Shown here: positions 49,130 to 61,141 of the stretch, in pieces | How the letters are laid out: every line of letters begins with the position of its first letter | Numbering within the stretch: position 1 is the stretch's first letter | Assembly: GCA_963833985.1 (NCBI GenBank) | Contig: CAWIAD010000001.1 | Coordinates: 3,008,001 to 3,072,000, forward strand | Length of the DNA: 64,000 bases | Reading direction: 5' to 3' | Source of the DNA: an uncultured Planctomycetaceae bacterium | GTDB lineage: Bacteria > Planctomycetota > Planctomycetia > Isosphaerales > Isosphaeraceae | Translations under genes and position numbers: made by a program | Notes under the pieces: model-generated | Databases searched by the model: none | Seen by the model: only the letters and a program-made list of their open reading frames with translations | Told to the model about the DNA's origin: nothing

Positions 49130-49306
49130 GAGACGGATGGAGCCCTCAGAACGGTGGCGGCGACAATCGGTCCATCCATCGTACCCGCCGCAAGCCGGTT
49201 CGGCCACCTTGTCCGGACCGGGCCCCCGCTCTAGAATCGCCCTGCGTGTACCGACGCGCGAACAGTGCTGATGCACGATAAACCCGAGCGGGAGCCAGTC
49301 CTGACG

Positions 49307-50522
49307 ATGCCCGAGATTGATGACCAGCTTCGCGTCCTCTCCCGGGGAGTGGACCAGATTGCTCCGGAAGACGAGTTCCGCAGGAAGCTGGAGCGGTCAC
49401 TCCGCGATCGCCGTCCCCTGCGCGTCAAGTACGGTATCGATCCGACCGGCATCGACGTGCATCTCGGCCACACCGTTCCCCTGCGCAAGCTCAGACAGTT
49501 TCAGGACCTGGGACATGCTGCGGTCATCATCATCGGCAACTATACGGCACTCGTCGGAGATCCCTCGGGCCGCGACGAGACCCGCGCGGTTGACGCAAGA
49601 GCAGGTGCAGGCCAACGCCCGCGACTACCTCCAGCAGGTCGGCCGCATCATCGACCTCCAGCGCGCCGAGGTGCATCATAACGGCGACTGGTTCTCGCGC
49701 TGGTCGTTTCTCCAGGTACTCGACCTGATGCGGCACATGACCCTCGGTCAGATGAGCGCCCGTGAGGATTTCGCGCAGCGGATCGCCGCCGAGAAGCCCG
49801 TCTATTTGCACGAGTGCCTGTACCCCCTCATGCAGGGGTGGGATTCAGTCGAGATCAAGGCCGACGTGGAGTTGGGCGGAACGGAGCAGCTCTTCAGCTT
49901 GCTTGTCGCTCGGGACTTGCAGCACTCCCAGGGACAGGAACCGCAGGTGGCGATGACCATGCCGATTCTGGTCGGCACCGACGGCGTCCGCCGCATGGGG
50001 AAGAGTCTGGGGAATTACATCGGCGTGGGCGAGACGCCTGAGAACCAGTTCGGCAAGGTGATGAGCGTACCCGACGAGCCGATGCGCCAGTATTTCACGC
50101 TGCTGACGGACCTGCCGATCTCCGAGATCGATCGCCTGCTCGCTCCGGAGGTGAATCCCAGGGACGCCAAGGAGGTTCTCGGCAAGGCCGTCGTCACCCA
50201 GTATCACGGGGCCGAAGCCGCCGACCAGGCGGCCGCCGAGTTTCGCCGCCGGGCCGCGGGGGATGATCCTGACGAGATTCCTGATGTCACACTCTCCGCG
50301 GACAGGCTCGACGCCGAAGGCCGGATTCCCGGACCCATTCTCATCAAGGAACTGGGGCTCGAAACCAGCACGTCCAACGCGCGCCGTGTGATCGAGCAGG
50401 GCGGTTTCAACGTCGGCCCTCACCGGGAGGCCGTCTCCGACCCGAAAGCGCTGATCCAGGTGTCCGACGGCTTGATCGTCCGGGTGGGCAAGCGCAAGAT
50501 CGCAAGAGTACGGCTGGTCTGA
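49307..50522 (+). CDS. tyrS: Tyrosine--tRNA ligase; apparent frameshift near 49588
   Basis: [16 protein letters not shown] and GDPSGR in the first frame; [24 protein letters not shown] and an S4-like tail in the second. Confidence 0.95.
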
Positions 50523-51623: not shown

Positions 51624-52018
51624 GCCGCTTCGGCGGACCAGGCCTGCTTTCGTCCGCCGGCCATTGATCCGGACCTTCCCCTGGAACCGAATTCCGGCGC
51701 ACCCAGCCCGGTCGCCATCGCTCCGCGACGGAGCGCGCGGGGAATTGGAGGGGTCCTCCTCCGACTGGCATTCCGAGCAAGTATGGCTCGTGATCCAGCC
51801 AGACAAGACGCTCGGTCGGCAGCATGCCGCATGATCGTGCCTGGAATAAATTCATTTTAAGGTCCTGCGGACAATTGATGGCAGAAATGCCTAGTTTGGG
51901 ATAATCTAAGAGATACGCGCGGGAATGTCGCCTGATTCCCAGCTTGGATCGTGAGTCCGCAACACGTCGTTCAGTCAATTCGCTCGAGACGAGCCGATGC
52001 GCCTTTGGGAGGCGAGTG

Positions 52019-52933
52019 ATGCCCAAGTCCGTCTTCATCAGCTACAGCCGCGCGCAGGGCGACTGGGTATTCGACCGATTGATCCCTCTCCTGCAAGCGG
52101 CGGGGATCGAGATCTTTGTGGATCGAGAACGGTTCAAGGCCGGCCGACCGCTGATCCCGTCGATGGAAGAATGGCAGGACAAGGCCGACATCAACGTGCT
52201 GGTGTTCTCGCCGGATTATCTTGAGAGCGAGTATTGCCAGCATGAGATGAACCGGGCCATCAGGCGGGATCCGAAGTTCGCGAAAGGAATCATCATTCCG
52301 GTGATGCGCGCCGAGTGCGTCCTTCCCCCCAAGATCAAGAAGGCGAATCCGCTGTTCGTGGACCTCGCTCCTGACAGGGAGGCAGAACCCTGGAAGAAAC
52401 TGCTTGAAGCCTGCGAGGGGTCACTGGGGACTTGCCCCCGGGAGTGGCTGAGCGCCCGGGATTCGATGCGCAAGCACCTTGAGAAGAAAGAGTCCGTCAA
52501 CCTGGTCGTCAGCGGAGGCGCGAGCTGGCGTCAGCTCATCGAGCACCTGCACAAGGACAGGGGCAACGATCTGGGCCTGGTTGACCTTCAGAACCCGGCC
52601 ACCTTTTCGAGAAAGGGACTGGTGCAGGCAATCCTCAGCGCTGCCGGCTCGACCATGGAGCCTCCCGAGGAGCCCGCGGACCTGATGCTGCTTGGAGATG
52701 TCATCGAGAGCCGCAAGCTGACACGCATTGCATTGACGCATTTTGATCTGATCGCGAGACGCAGCCTTGGCAACAAGGATGACCTGTTCTGCGCCCTCCG
52801 CTACTGGCTGATGGAGACGCGCAAGCTGGTGCTGCTGGTGCAGTCGCGCGAACCGTTCAATCGCCTGGTCTCGGCCGACCACCCGCTATCGCCCATCTCG
52901 TTGAAGATTGTCGAGCTGAAGGAGCAGGCATGA
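52019..52933 (+). CDS. TIR domain protein with C-terminal degenerate P-loop/STAND-like domain
   Basis: VFISYSR, IFVD, VFSPDYLESEYCQHE, IIPV (TIR_2 pattern); GGGAGG RBS; stop overlaps the next ATG (ATGA). Confidence 0.88.
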   Translation: MPKSVFISYSRAQGDWVFDRLIPLLQAAGIEIFVDRERFKAGRPLIPSMEEWQDKADINVLVFSPDYLESEYCQHEMNRAIRRDPKFAKGIIIPVMRAECVLPPKIKKANPLFVDLAPDREAEPWKKLLEACEGSLGTCPREWLSARDSMRKHLEKKESVNLVVSGGASWRQLIEHLHKDRGNDLGLVDLQNPATFSRKGLVQAILSAAGSTMEPPEEPADLMLLGDVIESRKLTRIALTHFDLIARRSLGNKDDLFCALRYWLMETRKLVLLVQSREPFNRLVSADHPLSPISLKIVELKEQA

Positions 52934-55900
52934 ACCTCCTTAGCGGCCAGGCAGACGCGAGTGATCGCCGCTCGTGGCTCTCGTGGCTTCTCTTGCTGTA
53001 TCGCCGCCCTGGATCGTTTTGCGACGCCTGGGATAATCTGGCGGCGAGCCAGCAGTGGCGGCTTGGCATTCAGCTTGCCTTCCTCACGATCCCCTGCTTC
53101 TTCCTGATCAGCGTCGCATTCAACCAGGTCGTTCAGTTCCTCATTCCTCGACTTCATGCGCTGTTCAACGAGAGCGATGCCTTTCGAAACCCTCGCCGAG
53201 CGCGGCTTCTATGGCATTGCCGCTGTGGCCTGCCTCGAACTCCTCGTCTGGCGGCGCCGTGATCCGGTCGAGCTGGAGCATTCTGGAACCGAGCGGCTAC
53301 GCGCCGCCAGGCTCTTGACGATGCGGCGTATCGCCTTACTGGCCGCGGTGTTGCTGTCCCTCGTCTACACCGCGTCCACGTTGAGAACGGCGGACGGGAG
53401 TCCAGAGGTCCAGAATCTCGTCTTCCGGACAGTGATCACCGCGCTGGCGGCCTGCACGATGCCAATGGCTCTGGAACTGTACTTCTGGATCCACCGCAGA
53501 CCGACCGGAACCGAGGAGCCGATGATCGGAGACCGCTCGCGAGCCTCGGCGCGGATCGCGGGGCGTTTGCTTGTCTATTTGCCGGTGGTCTGCATACTGT
53601 ACCTGGTCGTCTTCTCCTACGTCGGACTGCCCATACCCTCCGGCGTGCCTGAAATTCAGACTCGGGCACAGTTTGCAAAGATCGTCGAGGCAGCGCTGGA
53701 AGGTGTGGTCAAAGGCGTGACGGTCGGAGCCGTGGCAGGGATGCTGGTCGGCTACCTGGCCAGCCCCACGCACGGGATCGCCCTGGGCTTCATCGGGGCG
53801 ATGGCCGGCGGACTGGCACTCGGCACAACGTCTCGTAACGCACCGACGTTACTGCTCATGATTGCGCTCTTCATCGCGCTACTCTGGCCACTGTTGACCG
53901 GAGGCATGCGCAAGGAACTCTCCGCCGGACACCTGGCCGCAGCGACCGTCGTTCTGGTGGTTCTCGTGTCGATCTACGCGCAGATCGAGAAGGGAGTCAA
54001 ACATCAGGATTTTCTCCAGACGGAAGGCCTGATCCGTGGAGTCGCCCTGGGGCTGATACTGGGACTGTGCCGTGGAGCGGCCGAGTCCGTATTGCTACGT
54101 AAGCGAATGAAGTACCGGATGGGCCTGCTGGGAGCGATGATCGTCGGCACGATCGTATTCTTTTCCACGCTGTCGGCCGAGCAGAAGGCGGCAGCGCATT
54201 CCTCTTCCGGGCCGATTGCTAGCCAGACAGCCACAGCGGACTCCGCTGCCAGATCGTCCGCCAGCCACACGGCGACAGCAAATCGCTCCGCCAGAGCGTC
54301 GCAGCGCTGGTTACCCCTGCTCGCCGGTCTCGTCCTGGGAGCCTCGTACCTGGTTGGAGTGCTTCGCATCTACTACCACGCGGTCCACCCGCTCTTCGTC
54401 ATGCCGAACCCCACCGGCGCCTGGTACCCGCGCCACCCCGTGGCCTGGGACGACCTGTGCTCGGTTTCGTTTCCCGGCCTTCATCGCCTGCTCGTCGCCT
54501 ATGCGGAACTCGAGCCCGAGGCCGCCTCGACCGAGATCAGCAGGCTCATTGCCGGCTATGACAGCCAGAAAGCGCAGGCCCTGCTGGCACGTGCGGTCCT
54601 GCTCATGCGTCAGTCGGGCCGGGTTCAGAACCTCTCGGAACTTGGGCCGATTTTCGCCGAGCTTGCCCGAGACGATTTCGAGTTCCTGCGCAAGCCGCCG
54701 AAGCTCAATGCCCTGATTGGCGAGATCGTCAGCCTCCACAACCGGCTGCGCACCATCGACCGGCCAACCTTCCGCGAGCCGACGGCGCGCGAGCTCTGTA
54801 CGATGATCGACAGGTTCCGCTACCAGGTGGACAACTTCCAGGAGCCATGGGCGACCGAGTTCCGACTGGCCGCCGAATGCTGGCTGCGCATCGCCCGGAA
54901 ACTGCTCGGCGAGGCCGCGGCCGTCGTGGAGAAAGAGCCGACTCCCCAGGTCTTTGCGCGGGCGACCCCGTCGATCGCGAGACCGAGGCATTCGTCAACC
55001 GCGCAGGGGTCATCGGCGATCTCGAGCGCCTGGTGATGCTGAACACGGGCTGCCCCGGAATCGTCCTTTACGCCCGCCGCAGGATGGGAAAGTCGACCGT
55101 CCTGCGCAACCTCGGCGGATTCCTTCCGCCCTCGGTCCGACCGGTGACCATTTCCATGCAAGATCCTCGGGCATTTTCCTCGTTCCCGTCTTTCATGGGC
55201 CTGGCAGCCAGGCTTCTGAGCGAGGCTGCTCCCGGCGGCAATCATGCGTCCCCTGCTCACGACCTGCCAAGCTTCTTCACGTTCCTGGACAGGTGCAACC
55301 ATACGCTCGAGTCCGAGGGGCGGCGCATCCTCCTAAGTATTGACGAGTACGAGTACATTGATTCCAAGATCGCCGCCAATGTATTCCCCGAGGATTTCTT
55401 GAACCTGGTGAGGGAATCGATCCAGTCCCATCGGTCGCTCACGTGGATCTTCGCCGGCAGTCACGAGATCAACGAGCTCACGAGCGCACCCTGGGCTTCC
55501 TCGCTGGTCAGCGCGCGGACGATCGAGATCCCGATGTTCACGGAGGAAGAAACCCATCTCTTGCTCACCGACCCTTTGAGACACTCGCAGACCTTCGCAC
55601 GCAACGGCGCCGCGCGGCCTCGCCCGTGCTTCAGCGAGGAGTTCTGGGGAAATGGCGGAGTCCACCGCGTCCACAGGGAGGCAGGTGGCTGGCCGCACCT
55701 GGTCCAGCTCATCGCCGAGACGGTCGTCGACATGCTCAACGACGAGAATGGCAGCCGGGTCGACGATCGGCTCATCGACCGTGCGCTGGACCGTGCCGTC
55801 GTGAACGGACACAACGTCTTCTACGAGCTACTCTATAGCGAGTCGCAGAAGAACCCAGGCGAATGGGATTACGTCTCCGCCTTCCGCCGTGCCGAAACTC

Positions 55901-56025
55901 AGACTCCTCCCGCCGACGACCTCATCTGGCGGTCGCTACGGCGACGCAAGCTGGTCGTCGAGGAGGGCGGCCTGTGGCGGCTGCGGGTCCCGATGATGCA
56001 GCGCTGGCTTTGCACCCGCGGCTGA
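52930..56025 (+). CDS. Multi-pass membrane protein with C-terminal STAND/AAA-type ATPase; apparent frameshifts near 53183 and 54957
   Basis: Three overlapping ORFs join into ~1030 aa: about 10-12 TMs, HPVAWDD, helical region, QVF-RAGDPV, Walker A ARRRMGKST, Walker B LLSIDEYE, FAGS, GGWP, winged-helix-like end. Confidence 0.8.
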
Positions 56026-57204: not shown

Positions 57205-58678
57205 CTCCCTTGAGCGGAAACGCGGCGATCTGCCCGTCCTCGGCCAGGATACTCTCCGGCGTTCCCTGCGTGTCGTAGGTGATCGGCGACGGCGTGCCTT
57301 TGGTCAGGGTCACGCGCAGTTCCTCGGCGTTCTGCGCCACGATGGCGACCTTCATGCCGCCTGGCTTCAAATGCTTACGGACGGCCGCGTTGACTTGCTC
57401 CACGGTGAGCTTTGGCAACTGGCTCGCCAGCTCGGTGACCAGGTCGTTGCGGCCGTAGAACCGGCCATCGATCGCATAGCCCAGCCGGCGCGACAGGGTC
57501 TGAACCCAGAGCTTGCTGTAATTGAGCAGGAAAGCGCGCGTGGCCTCGAAATCGGCCGGGCTCATGCCGTCGTTCACCAGCCGGTCCAGCTCCCAGAGTG
57601 CCGCACGAAGAGCGAAGGCCGCCTTGTCTTTTGGAACGGGCCGCACCCAGATGGAGAAGTACTGCTGTCTTCTCGGGTTATTCGCAACCTCGAACGTGCT
57701 TCGACCTTCCTGGATGAAGTCCTCGATGTACGAGTAATCGCCGTAATTCAGCCCGCGCTTGCCGCGCAGGTCCTGCATCAGCTTGCCATTGAACGTGCGG
57801 TGTTCGCCCAGGTACGAGTTCGCAACGGCCAGCGCGTAGAAGTCGTCGTCGTGACGGGTGACGTCGATCGGGAAGCCGATCGAGATGGCGGTGGCCTCGG
57901 CCGGCTTGGCCACGATCGTCACTTCCAGTCCCGCGGGCGGGGCCGGGCGGCCGAGTACCGGCAAGGTCCGCTCGTGGCGGGGCAGCGCCGCGAGCTTTGC
58001 CTCCACCAGCGCGGCATCGTCCGATTCAAAGCCGCCCGCCATGCCCAGCGTGAGCGCCTTGCGCGTGTAGAACCGCTGGTGAAACGCCTTCACATCCTCC
58101 AGCGTGATCGCCTTCAACCCCTGCACGGTGCCAAGGTCGGGATGGCCGTAAGGATGGCCCTGGTACAGCTCGCACTGGAGCGTCCACTTGCCAAGCTCTT
58201 CATCGTTATTGCCGCGCAGGCCCTTGCTGACGTAGTCGATCGCCTCGTTGCGCAGCCGCTCGAAGTCGTCGGGAGCGAAGCGGGGGGCCGTCAGCAGCTC
58301 GGTGACCAGGGGAATATAGGCCCCGAGGTTGTCGTGATGGATGGTCCCCTCGAAGACCGTGACTTCCTTATGGCAGACGCCGTCCAGGCTTGCGGCCATG
58401 GGGTAGAACTTCTCCAGGAGTTGTTCGTACGAGAAGCTTGTCGTGCCTCCCTGCGCGATCATCGCCATGGCAAGCGCGGCCAGGCCCTCCTTGCCTTTGG
58501 GGTCATCCTGCGAGCCGACGCGGAACACGAATCGAAACGAAACCAGCGGGCTCGACGGCGAGGGAAGCAGGATCGCGCCGCGATTCCCACCCTCGGCCAG
58601 CGGCGCCGCCGCCAATCCGGCGGCCGGCATCGTCAGAAGCAGCGCGAGTGCCAGCAACAGATGGGGCTTTCCGCTCAT
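57155..58678 (-). CDS. M16 family peptidase, non-catalytic subunit
   Basis: GSQDDPKGKEGLAAL without HxxEH; HPYGHP; LRGKRGLNYG. Confidence 0.9.
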   Translation of the reverse strand: MSGKPHLLLALALLLTMPAAGLAAAPLAEGGNRGAILLPSPSSPLVSFRFVFRVGSQDDPKGKEGLAALAMAMIAQGGTTSFSYEQLLEKFYPMAASLDGVCHKEVTVFEGTIHHDNLGAYIPLVTELLTAPRFAPDDFERLRNEAIDYVSKGLRGNNDEELGKWTLQCELYQGHPYGHPDLGTVQGLKAITLEDVKAFHQRFYTRKALTLGMAGGFESDDAALVEAKLAALPRHERTLPVLGRPAPPAGLEVTIVAKPAEATAISIGFPIDVTRHDDDFYALAVANSYLGEHRTFNGKLMQDLRGKRGLNYGDYSYIEDFIQEGRSTFEVANNPRRQQYFSIWVRPVPKDKAAFALRAALWELDRLVNDGMSPADFEATRAFLLNYSKLWVQTLSRRLGYAIDGRFYGRNDLVTELASQLPKLTVEQVNAAVRKHLKPGGMKVAIVAQNAEELRVTLTKGTPSPITYDTQGTPESILAEDGQIAAFPLKGVTVKIVPVQQMFEKSP

Positions 58679-60035
58679 TTCTGCTTCTCCGTCTCGAGGG
58701 TGACCACTGTTTCGTTGGCCAGGGTGAAGTACCTGGCGGCCACACGCTGGAGGTCAGCGGGCGTGAGCCGGTCGAAGGCTGTGAAGAGATCGTTCATGGC
58801 GTCGGGACGGCCTGTGATGGCGATCGATTCGCCCACGGCACGCGCGACTGCATCGGCGCTGCGGAGCGAAGCGGCAAAATCATATTTCAGGTGCGATCGG
58901 ACCGCGTTCAGCCGCGCGGCGTCGATCGGAGTTCGGGCCGCGTCCGCCAGAGCCGCGGAGATCTTCTCCCGCACGGCCGCTAGATCGGCCGGCGTCCGCA
59001 CCCGCGCAGGATCGTGAAGAGGCCCGGATCGCGGTGCTCGGAGGGGTCGGCCATGAGCGTCACGACCTTTTGCTCCTTGAGCACCAAGTCCTGGTACAGC
59101 GGGCTGGTCTCACCGAAAAGCACCTGCTGCAACGCCCCCAGCGCAGCGGTGTCCGGATGGGTCGGATCCGAGGCGGGAACGTGATAACCCAGGTAGAGGA
59201 TCGGCAACGTCGGCACGGGCCAGGTGACCCGTGCGCTGCGGGGCTGGGTCTGCGGGGGCTCCGTGGGAACTTCCACGCTGGCCTTGCCCCGCGCCCACGC
59301 CCCGTAATGGGTCTTGACCAGCGACACGAGCTCGGCATGCTTGATGTCGCCGGTCACCACGATGGTGCAGTTCTCGGGACGGTACCAGCGATCGAAGAAG
59401 ATCTTGCTGTACGCATACTGATTCGGCATCTCCTTGATGTCTTCCAGGAACCCGAGCGTCGTATGCTTGTACGTGTGCCGCGTGAAGGCCGTGTCCTGCA
59501 TGGCCTCTTCGAGCTTGAGAAAGGGCGACGAGGCGTTCTTGTTGTACTCTCCTAAGACCGCGCGGGCTTCTTTCTGGAACGATGGCTCATCGTACTTCAG
59601 GTTCTGGAACCGATCTGACTCGAGCTCCACGGCCGTCTCCAGCGCCGAGGCGGGAACCGTCATGTGATAGCACGTCCAATCATCGGTGGTGAAGGCGTTT
59701 GAATCCGCACCCAGCGACTTCAGGACGTCGTTGTATTTCTGTTGCGGATACCGCTCTGTACCGCGGAACATCATGTGCTCGAAGAAGTGGGCGAAGCCGG
59801 AGAGCCCCTTCTCCACCTCGTTGCGCGAGCCGGTGCGGACCACCGTGTAGTAGGCGATGATCCCCGGCGAGTCGAACGGGATCGAGACCACTGTCAGCCC
59901 GTTCTCAAGAGTCGTCTGCCGGATCGGAAACGGGAAGATCGGCTTGTCGCTGGCCTGCCCTGGTCCGGCCCCGGCAACCAGCCCCGCCAGAGCCAGCACG
60001 ATCAAAGGCGCGAATTTTATACTTTGATATCTCAA
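58675..60035 (-). CDS. M16 family peptidase, catalytic subunit; apparent frameshift near 59008
   Basis: GSRNE, GFAHFFEHMMFRGT, NAFT, WYRPEN; AAGGAG before TTG; C-terminus continues in ORF 58675-59001 and couples to the next gene. Confidence 0.9.
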
Positions 60036-60076
60036 CAGAAAGAACTCCTTGATGAATTGCGGCTCGCGGCCGGACA

Positions 60077-61141
60077 TCAGCGCGACGTGAACTCTCGCTT
60101 CGCGCCGTCGGGCCCGATCTGCACGCTGAACTTTGCACCGCCTGGTGCAACCGCGACGTGAATGAACTGGCCGCCGGCGACATCGGTGTTGGCGATCAGA
60201 GCCGGCTCGGTGTTGTCCTCCGAGGACGTCATGGCATTGCGATGAAGCTGGTAGGCCGCCTGGATCGAGGCGATGGACCGCAACAGCTTCACGGTCGCCG
60301 GCGATCCTCCCTTGCGCGGGCCGTTGTTCATGATGGCCACGGTCGGCTGGATGCTCCTCAGGAGGACCGGGTTGTTCGAGATATCCATGCCATGATGCGT
60401 GACCTGAAAGAGGTCGATGTTCCCCAGCAGGTTCGAAGGGCACACAAGCTGGCGCTCGATGTTCCAGGTCAGGTCGCCACAGTCCAGGAAATCGAACGCG
60501 CCGAACTCGAACCGGATTGCCAGGCTGCGAGCGTTATCGGAGGAATCGACGGGCAAGTCGGGCGGTGCGCTCGAACATTCGGGATTCGCCAGCGCCGTTG
60601 CAGGCTGACGCATCACCTTGCCGCCCGAGGCCACCACCAGGGCCTTCAGATTGCCCGGTAGAGGGATCGAATCGCCGGCCTTGAGGGCCGTCCGCTTGCC
60701 ATGGGAAGCGGCGCGGTAAGCGACTCCGAGCGGGTCGTCTGCCCTGGGACCATCCGGAAAATCGAGGTCCGGATTGGCGTCCTCAGGCAACCCTCGATCC
60801 CAGAAGTGCCTGATCTCGATGGCCTTCGCCAGTCCGGCCACGCCGCCGAAGTGGTCCATGTGCCAGTGCGTCGTGACAAGGTGGTCCAGGTGGTCGCACC
60901 CGGCCAGGTCGCGCAGGACGTGCACGATCCGGCGCGGATCGCGGTCCTCAAAACCGGGCCAACCGGAATCGATCAGCACAGATTCCTTCTCGGGAGACAC
61001 CACCAGGGTGGCCGCTCCCCCCATCACGTCGATGAAGTAAAGATCGAGCGACCGCGAGGCCGGCTCTTCCCCGTATGCCGGTCCCATCCCGAGGAGACAT
61101 CCGGCGAGAAGTGCGAAACCGGCGCGCTTGCTAAGATTCAT
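60077..61141 (-). CDS. Secreted MBL-fold metallo-hydrolase (ComEC/Rec2-like)
   Basis: IDVMGGAATL, LIDSG, THWHMDHFGG, DNARS, GDL, HHG. Confidence 0.9.
   Translation of the reverse strand: MNLSKRAGFALLAGCLLGMGPAYGEEPASRSLDLYFIDVMGGAATLVVSPEKESVLIDSGWPGFEDRDPRRIVHVLRDLAGCDHLDHLVTTHWHMDHFGGVAGLAKAIEIRHFWDRGLPEDANPDLDFPDGPRADDPLGVAYRAASHGKRTALKAGDSIPLPGNLKALVVASGGKVMRQPATALANPECSSAPPDLPVDSSDNARSLAIRFEFGAFDFLDCGDLTWNIERQLVCPSNLLGNIDLFQVTHHGMDISNNPVLLRSIQPTVAIMNNGPRKGGSPATVKLLRSIASIQAAYQLHRNAMTSSEDNTEPALIANTDVAGGQFIHVAVAPGGAKFSVQIGPDGAKREFTSR

Follow-up and report, generated by a model that had tools for sequence, protein, structure and literature searches.

A predicted inactive, lid-less STAND core fused to a TIR domain is paired with a probably membrane-anchored STAND ATPase in a likely undescribed bacterial defence module

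Within the 64,000-nucleotide stretch of DNA analysed here (the window), a TIR protein encoded by what we call gene A ends in a C-terminal domain (CTD) that is predicted to fold as the core of an AAA+/STAND ATPase and that, throughout its family, has replaced the residues of the ATP-binding motifs by other conserved ones. Gene A is followed, with overlapping stop and start codons, by gene B for a large STAND ATPase, and we regard this A/B pair as a likely undescribed bacterial defence module. Gene A and its two domains are laid out as follows.

51878..51905 (+): sigma-70-like promoter candidate 5' of gene A; consensus match only, a single hit where shuffled sequence gives 0.1 on average (sd 0.4)
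52019..52933 (+): gene A, TIR plus inactive STAND-core protein; a 304-aa ORF with 51 homologues, mostly of the same two-domain build of ~300 aa
52031..52405 (+): TIR domain, residues 5-129 of the gene A protein; Pfam TIR_2, E 1.9e-22
52436..52930 (+): CTD, inactive lid-less AAA+/STAND alpha/beta core, residues 140-304; predicted from AlphaFold2, VIA fold search and hhalign

The fold of the CTD is supported by modelling. In the AlphaFold2 model of the gene A protein, which was built on a 52-sequence alignment (pLDDT 90.8), the CTD consists of helix-strand repeats with five strands in AAA+ order (residues 160-164, 185-189, 235-240, 270-276 and 296-300), and the chain stops directly after strand 5, so that lid and winged helix are both absent; a preliminary description of this DNA had likewise placed the end of the protein before the helical and winged-helix parts. 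When the whole protein was searched against 48,161 PDB representatives, the best match to the CTD was Cdc6/Orc1 (2qby; VIA Z 15.1, rmsd 2.7, 157 aligned), with further matches to an ORC chain (5ujm_E, Z 14.3, model residues 140-304), TnsC (14.1), MuB (13.9), PAB2304 (13.7), Sso1545 (12.2), 8bob (11.2) and a plant resistosome (6j5t, 11.1). The non-TIR proteins among the best 50 matches were nearly all of the ORC/Cdc6/STAND type, Foldseek with the same model agreed, and an ESM Atlas feature search with the CTD returned leads that all scored below 0.9 and of which every named one was AAA/STAND-like. BrxB is absent among the matches listed for the CTD fold search and Foldseek, which excludes nothing. 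At the sequence level, the CTD alone met no meaningful family in Pfam or PADLOC and a single weak, unrelated match in the PDB (E 0.64), and the TIR part was the sole match of the gene A protein in NCBIfam. Neither the model nor the fold searches pointed to anything other than a P-loop/ASCE alpha/beta core, and the earlier proposal of an inactive P-loop NTPase fold is now backed by structure prediction, by two fold searches and by homology to intact STAND ATPases. We therefore consider the predicted assignment of the CTD to the AAA+/STAND (ASCE) core fold to be supported.

The loss of the ATP-binding residues extends far beyond the window. Searching 1.84 billion representatives with a CTD profile yielded, at E <= 0.001, 319 clusters (50% identity), and the 201 proteins examined gave 184 near-full, distinct CTDs that are 31-66% identical to the query. 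A canonical Walker A motif occurs in none of the 184, in keeping with the original observation that SVNLVVSGGASWRQL occupies the Walker A place in the window protein and lacks GK[ST]. Three stretches of the CTD correspond to motifs of intact relatives.

52508..52531 (+): residues 164-171, the degenerate P-loop; in a gapless alignment with the intact Walker A of the sister family, W170 takes the place of the Lys and R171 that of the Ser/Thr
52724..52747 (+): residues 236-243, the degenerate Walker B; T240/H241 stand where DE would be and the third acidic residue, D243, is retained, from profile alignments
52826..52849 (+): residues 270-277, strand 4, with S276-R277 at its end, where T-x-S-R is frequent in sister proteins; from conservation and alignment

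The substitutes are themselves conserved across the 184 domains (W170 in 89%, H241 in 86%, D243 in 89%), as are R198 (94%), R248 (90%), R261 (91%), S276 (94%) and R277 (81%). Because the loss runs through all 184 CTDs together with these conserved replacements, the alignments indicate that it is a family trait under constraint and not the decay of one gene. The CTD thus has none of the features of an active STAND NTPase, as it carries no Walker A GxxxxGK[ST], no Walker B hhhhDE and no lid or winged helix, and we infer from the loss of the motifs that it probably neither binds nor hydrolyses NTP.

The origin of the CTD is best seen from its relatives. The preliminary description had drawn a parallel, motif by motif, to the neighbouring ATPase. 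All five of its motifs do lie in the 304-aa ORF (SVNLVVSGGASWRQL at residues 159-173, LGLVDLQ at 185-191, RIALTHFD at 236-243, FCALRY at 257-262 and LVLLVQSREP at 270-279), and their counterparts were located in the neighbouring ATPase at 54961-56022. A first alignment of CTD and partner ATPase profiles (40 and 24 sequences) covered 114 columns with a score of 27.9 (E 0.0029), which none of 180 column-shuffled profiles reached (maximum 27.0) and which compares with 13.1 for the reversed profile; this alignment paired four of the five motifs in the proposed order, but the Walker A region lay beyond its reach. With deeper profiles (184 and 125 sequences) the score rose to 44.8 (E 1.9e-5) and the P-loop region was now aligned. 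In global mode, hhalign had given a meaningless 9-column alignment, which was set aside.

Closer kin were found in other operons. Thirteen distant matches to gene B, mainly of a 700-800-aa class, were fetched, and 10 of the 12 evaluable loci carry a STAND gene upstream. Of these ten upstream proteins, seven have a canonical Walker A, in two the loop has an extra residue, and the remaining one is split into two pieces; an N-terminal TIR domain is present in two of the ten. The CTD profile matches them at E 5.9e-15 to 0.22 (Z=1000), with one unmatched. For the best of these sister STAND-A proteins we assembled a 117-member family, 114 members of which retain Walker A, and its alignment to the CTD profile spans 153 columns (hhalign probability 98.0, E 1.6e-13, score 90.8) and is gapless in the P-loop, so that W170 falls opposite the Walker A Lys and T240/H241 opposite the Walker B DE. 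Partner B reaches only 44.8 and the best of 20 shuffles 23.5, and the nearest kin of the CTD are therefore the intact upstream ATPases of sister operons instead of the neighbouring ATPase that had been taken as its parallel. In a quick tree, which was midpoint-rooted and in which one row (B_L003), mis-cut by the motif rule, shows a spurious long branch, the CTDs (SH-aLRT 100, long branch) join the upstream A proteins against all B proteins (SH-aLRT 99). An origin of the CTD as a duplicate of the neighbouring ATPase was rejected on the hhalign scores and the quick tree. Across the ten sister loci, which are not independent, the closeness of A to the CTD tracks that of B to the partner (rho 0.81). 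These sequence comparisons support homology between the CTD and intact STAND ATPases, and they suggest an ancestral two-STAND operon in which the first gene lost its P-loop and lid, the direction of loss being taken from the intact motif as the ancestral state of P-loop NTPases and not from a rooted tree.

The N-terminal domain of gene A appears to be a catalytic one. E76 (52244-52246) is conserved in at least 90% of the 52 aligned sequences and occupies the catalytic position of TIR NADases; of 201 proteins examined, 126 match the flanking pattern, and all 126 have the corresponding Glu. Judged by its sequence, the TIR domain of gene A carries the conserved Glu in helix C that characterises catalytic, NADase-type TIR domains. 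The position ahead of the CTD is also occupied by other domains. We scanned 119 representatives out of 149 new ones, leaving out short fragments, and found a TIR domain in 88, no family in 21 and an HTH domain in 4, as well as single cases of a nucleotide cyclase, an alpha/beta hydrolase, a trypsin, a CHAT caspase, a DUF4145 domain and a C-terminal ABC-type ATPase; one member of the first alignment, which we take to be P0014, matches an Mrr-type nuclease. Such apparent exchange of N-terminal domains is typical of conflict systems. In one protein, P0109, a CTD without a TIR domain is fused to the N-terminal side of an ABC-type AAA_21 ATPase.

Gene B encodes a protein of a different build, in which a conserved N-terminal motif is followed by a Gly-rich hydrophobic region, then a helical domain and finally a STAND ATPase complete with its lid and winged helix.

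52930..56025 (+): gene B, partner of ~1030 aa whose start codon overlaps the gene A stop; an intact 1030-aa homologue (L013) is colinear over frames 1-2-1
55072..55098 (+): intact Walker A of gene B, with Walker B DE at 55342-55347

Both motifs are nearly invariant among homologues of the partner (117 of 120 for Walker A and the same for Walker B). Simple hydropathy, as distinct from a topology predictor, gives about 10 hydrophobic 19-residue windows for the product of gene B, and in the 64 homologues with a recognisable N-terminus this part is 53-606 aa long with 1-9 strongly hydrophobic windows, which makes membrane anchoring of the partner likely. The C-terminal 569 aa of the L013 homologue were modelled (pLDDT 93.5) and are predicted to form a helical domain plus a STAND core that has both its lid and its winged helix. 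The closest structures are the archaeal PAB2304 (2qen; Z 21.6, rmsd 4.1, 312 aligned) and Sso1545 (Z 20.6), in a comparison that chiefly weighs what follows the helical domain (model residues 1-204). A C-terminal repeat sensor is absent from gene B, so no trigger is evident. In the window assembly, gene B is split by two frameshifts, one between 53154 and 53225 and one near 54955. These are likely assembly errors, since the genome's only match to a tyrosyl-tRNA synthetase is also frameshift-split. In the window, two genes named by their sequence motifs, this tyrosyl-tRNA synthetase (49265-50522, -) and an M16-type peptidase (58675-60443, -), are each split by a frameshift, which suggests indel errors in the assembly. 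Breaks also occur in homologous loci (L009, L012, L039, L042, L043 and L045-L050). At a further locus (L007:7579-10716; G456:C108), the partner occupies one frame of 1293 codons with two tandem helical-plus-ATPase modules.

The two genes are rarely found apart. Gene B follows gene A in all 12 genome loci, and of 56 loci examined, 42 extend 1.5 kb or more beyond A; among these 42, which include duplicates and kin and are thus not independent, 41 have a STAND partner downstream of A; the stop codon of A overlaps the start codon of B in 47 of the 56. In the reverse direction, eight close partner matches were fetched, two of which are cut by contig ends, and all six evaluable ones have a TIR-CTD gene upstream, two of the six repeating earlier contigs. 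The identity matrices of A and B correlate over 22 pairs (rho 0.56; 0 of 2000 permutations), a relationship that could stem from shared inheritance alone, and the CTD is about as conserved as the partner in these pairs (mean identity 54% vs 57%). Two proteins, P0131 and P0199, unite TIR domain, CTD and partner ATPase in one chain, although P0131 is without the last strand of the CTD and may be a deletion product. The sole locus without a partner (L028:1229-1700) carries directly behind A a WD40-like fragment, which may be what is left of a different type of partner, and another locus (L040:6001-9745) has two tandem TIR-CTD genes and then a short partner.

The cassette, whose two genes are flanked in the window by an oxidoreductase gene and an acyltransferase gene, is a patchy insertion between housekeeping genes. 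The CTD occurs in 4 of 61 related genomes, including G000, and in 5 of 11 loci of the same genus the two flanking housekeeping genes adjoin with no cassette between them (an empty site). A phylum-wide search for the partner, with 5 candidates per genome scored, found it in at least 2 of 401 genomes, and one other match was a fragment. Named hosts include Competibacter, Accumulibacter, Blastocatellia and an alphaproteobacterium. The cassette matched no viral contigs and no plasmids (one unrelated hit, E 0.02), and neither terminal repeats nor a target-site duplication stood out at its ends. PADLOC models match 14 of 116 neighbouring ORFs, about half of them generic kinases or AAA/GTPase proteins, a count without a background control in which we see no clear defence-island signal.

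We propose, at a little below even probability, that the lid-less, dead CTD docks on its ATP-bound partner and thereby clusters and switches on the TIR domains, likely against an invader. The product of gene B would sit in the inner membrane, anchored through its Gly-rich hydrophobic stretch, and, upon some trigger, would change state or oligomerise with ATP. With its own nucleotide face plugged by W170, the CTD would have the other face alone free for binding and could place it against the ATP site of B, as BrxB does on BrxC, so that it would cap the B assembly and gather several TIR domains, which may then cleave NAD+ and arrest growth or produce a nucleotide signal. The near-universal pairing, the overlapping stop and start codons, the two fusions and the BrxB-BrxC precedent argue for docking or an adaptor role, and the anatomy shared with BrxB argues for a cap. 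Against a cap, the usual arginine-finger slot just before strand 5 holds no conserved Arg in the CTD (at position 296, 31% of the domains have K and 21% have Q), and the partner keeps an Arg (R186) in the same slot; an Arg supplied in trans by the CTD would have to be another residue, for which R261 is one candidate. The lack of a clear defence-island signal among the neighbours speaks against defence. The frameshifted gene B of the window, the broken homologous loci and the lack of a C-terminal repeat sensor also weigh against the proposal.

Other arrangements of the same parts were weighed. Resting B could instead bind the CTD and keep the TIR domains apart or sequestered at the membrane, until a trigger or the loss of B frees A for self-assembly and toxicity; pairing, translational coupling and fusions fit this equally well, and A without B in just 1 of 42 loci would be expected if A alone were toxic. 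We nevertheless think it unlikely, as the one exceptional locus retains A with only the WD40 fragment replacing B, the window and several other loci have an intact A beside a frameshifted B (which sequencing error may explain), and direct fusions fit a release less well. The dead core could also be the sensor, with B acting as a threshold switch or membrane scaffold. Its best fold matches are DNA-binding proteins (ORC/Cdc6, TnsC and MuB), and R198, so strongly conserved, opens the helix that follows strand 2, in a region that contacts DNA in ORC/Cdc6. However, the CTD has no winged helix, and the part of the system that varies is the hydrophobic N-terminus of B, with its range of 53-606 aa. 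A nucleic-acid receptor role has been proposed for inactive STANDs such as iSTAND by Kaur et al. (PMC8195603, accessible part). iSTAND sensors are described as fast-evolving, whereas the CTD is about as conserved as its partner over the 22 pairs; we give a sensing CTD only a small chance.

Equally improbable, in our judgement, is a role outside defence, in which the pair would serve membrane-linked stress or developmental signalling with TIR, cyclase, HTH or protease domains as outputs. HTH, nucleotide cyclase and peptidase N-termini do exist, the defence-island context is not clear and, according to the accessible part of PMC13581612, many STAND clades are non-defence, but the patchy, insertion-like occurrence, the Mrr-type nuclease and DUF4145 N-termini and the dominance of TIR domains with the Glu as output all point the other way. 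Returning to a CTD that caps an ATP-bound partner, we tentatively suggest, with clear reservations, that the cassette represents an undescribed membrane-anchored two-STAND family in which present-day operons record how two live ATPases became one live ATPase and a lid-less cap plugged by Trp, and in which the cap may serve as a universal ATP-dependent socket joining a membrane-sensing STAND without a repeat sensor to interchangeable death or signalling enzymes.

Several known systems share parts of this architecture. In the accessible parts of two reports, BrxB of BREX is a compact inactive STAND without Walker motifs or helical bundle (PMC12839542) that binds the AAA+ domain of BrxC across an ATP and donates R182, blocks a further BrxC subunit at its position and bridges to PglZ (PMC13326643). 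The window pair resembles it in having a compact inactive STAND/ORC-Cdc6 core that lacks these elements, an active AAA+ partner and a link to an effector. It differs in that no BREX genes (brxC, pglX, pglZ) lie at the window locus, the effector is fused and not a separate PglZ, the partner bears a hydrophobic N-terminus and the three-stranded cap insert that follows strand 4 in BrxB is absent from the CTD model (helix 280-283, strand 296-300); a BrxB model gave no match to the gene A protein or its CTD.

The nSTAND2 system also joins an active and an inactive STAND in a gene pair (PMC8195603, accessible part, Fig. 6C; 30 of 104 places in one supplement). Likeness lies in the two-gene, MNS-like operon and in the variable effector fused to the inactive member, but the nSTAND2 gene, as described in the same part, has a winged helix, TPRs and a C-terminal HEPN (or GT4) domain and follows a STAND+wHTH gene, whereas in the window the inactive core comes first, is lid-less and has an N-terminal effector, and the active partner carries hydrophobic repeats. 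The nSTAND2 model PF20702 found no match at the window locus, although it does recognise the intact STAND-A proteins of the sister operons. Inactive STANDs fused to TIR, caspase or trypsin domains are known from MoxR-vWA ternary systems (PMC7159879 and PMC8195603, accessible parts), and the N-terminal TIR, caspase or trypsin domain is shared with iSTAND and iSTAND2, but the cassette has no MoxR or vWA gene and a STAND follows downstream in the 41 of 42 loci; at E <= 10, PF19995 (iSTAND) matches nothing in the genome. The suggested likeness to inactive STANDs of conflict systems consequently holds as a conceptual one, while the iSTAND, nSTAND2 and PADLOC models give no score. The MNS clade is likewise close in structure: the archaeal PAB2304 and Sso1545 head the structural matches of the partner and also match the CTD well, but both of these solved proteins are lone ATPases that lack an effector, a hydrophobic region and a dead partner. 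The Npun2340/2341 family, so named in the accessible part of PMC8195603, is a candidate relative in this clade, the link being structural closeness to PAB2304/Sso1545; related large families occur in Cyanobacteriota and Chloroflexota. Finally, Avs/AVAST and TIR-NLR-type STAND receptors couple a STAND switch to a TIR-type effector, but Avs is a single chain with a C-terminal repeat sensor (PMC13581612, accessible part), whereas in the window switch and effector lie on two STAND-derived proteins with no C-terminal sensor.

We found no description of the A/B pair in the literature, although the clade of the partner may sit in the large supplements of PMC13581612, which lie outside its accessible part, and short motifs of the family are absent from the readable supplements of three papers. 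The accessible part of PMC13581612 surveys STAND clades and their sensors from C-terminal regions of at least 400 aa, and a class of STAND switches in which a variable hydrophobic N-terminus replaces the C-terminal repeat sensor would be missed by such a survey. Inactive STANDs have been proposed as nucleic-acid sensors (Kaur 2021, PMC8195603, accessible part) and, from the partly accessible account of the BrxB structure, as caps or bridges on an active ATPase; the minimal two-gene system, with intact sister operons as natural controls, makes this question of sensor versus cap directly testable. Moreover, the 160-residue domain, which matches nothing in Pfam or PADLOC and yet has hits in 319 clusters (50% identity), could be given a family name of its own.

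The sister operons themselves are varied. Two of them, L075:5415-6593 (-) and L092:1938-3222 (+), have a TIR domain before the upstream STAND, which retains Walker A and lid in the former and is in two pieces in the latter, and in both a partner of 913-965 aa follows; they are the live-ATPase counterpart of the window architecture. A widespread sister operon (L084-L091) consists of two STAND ATPases, the first mostly of ~300 aa and with no recognised effector, and 380 homologues were found for the L084 protein. At L094:2130-6071, a family of ~1300-1400 aa with propeller and carboxypeptidase-regulatory-like domains stands before a related STAND, and families of this type are common among the searched relatives of G454.
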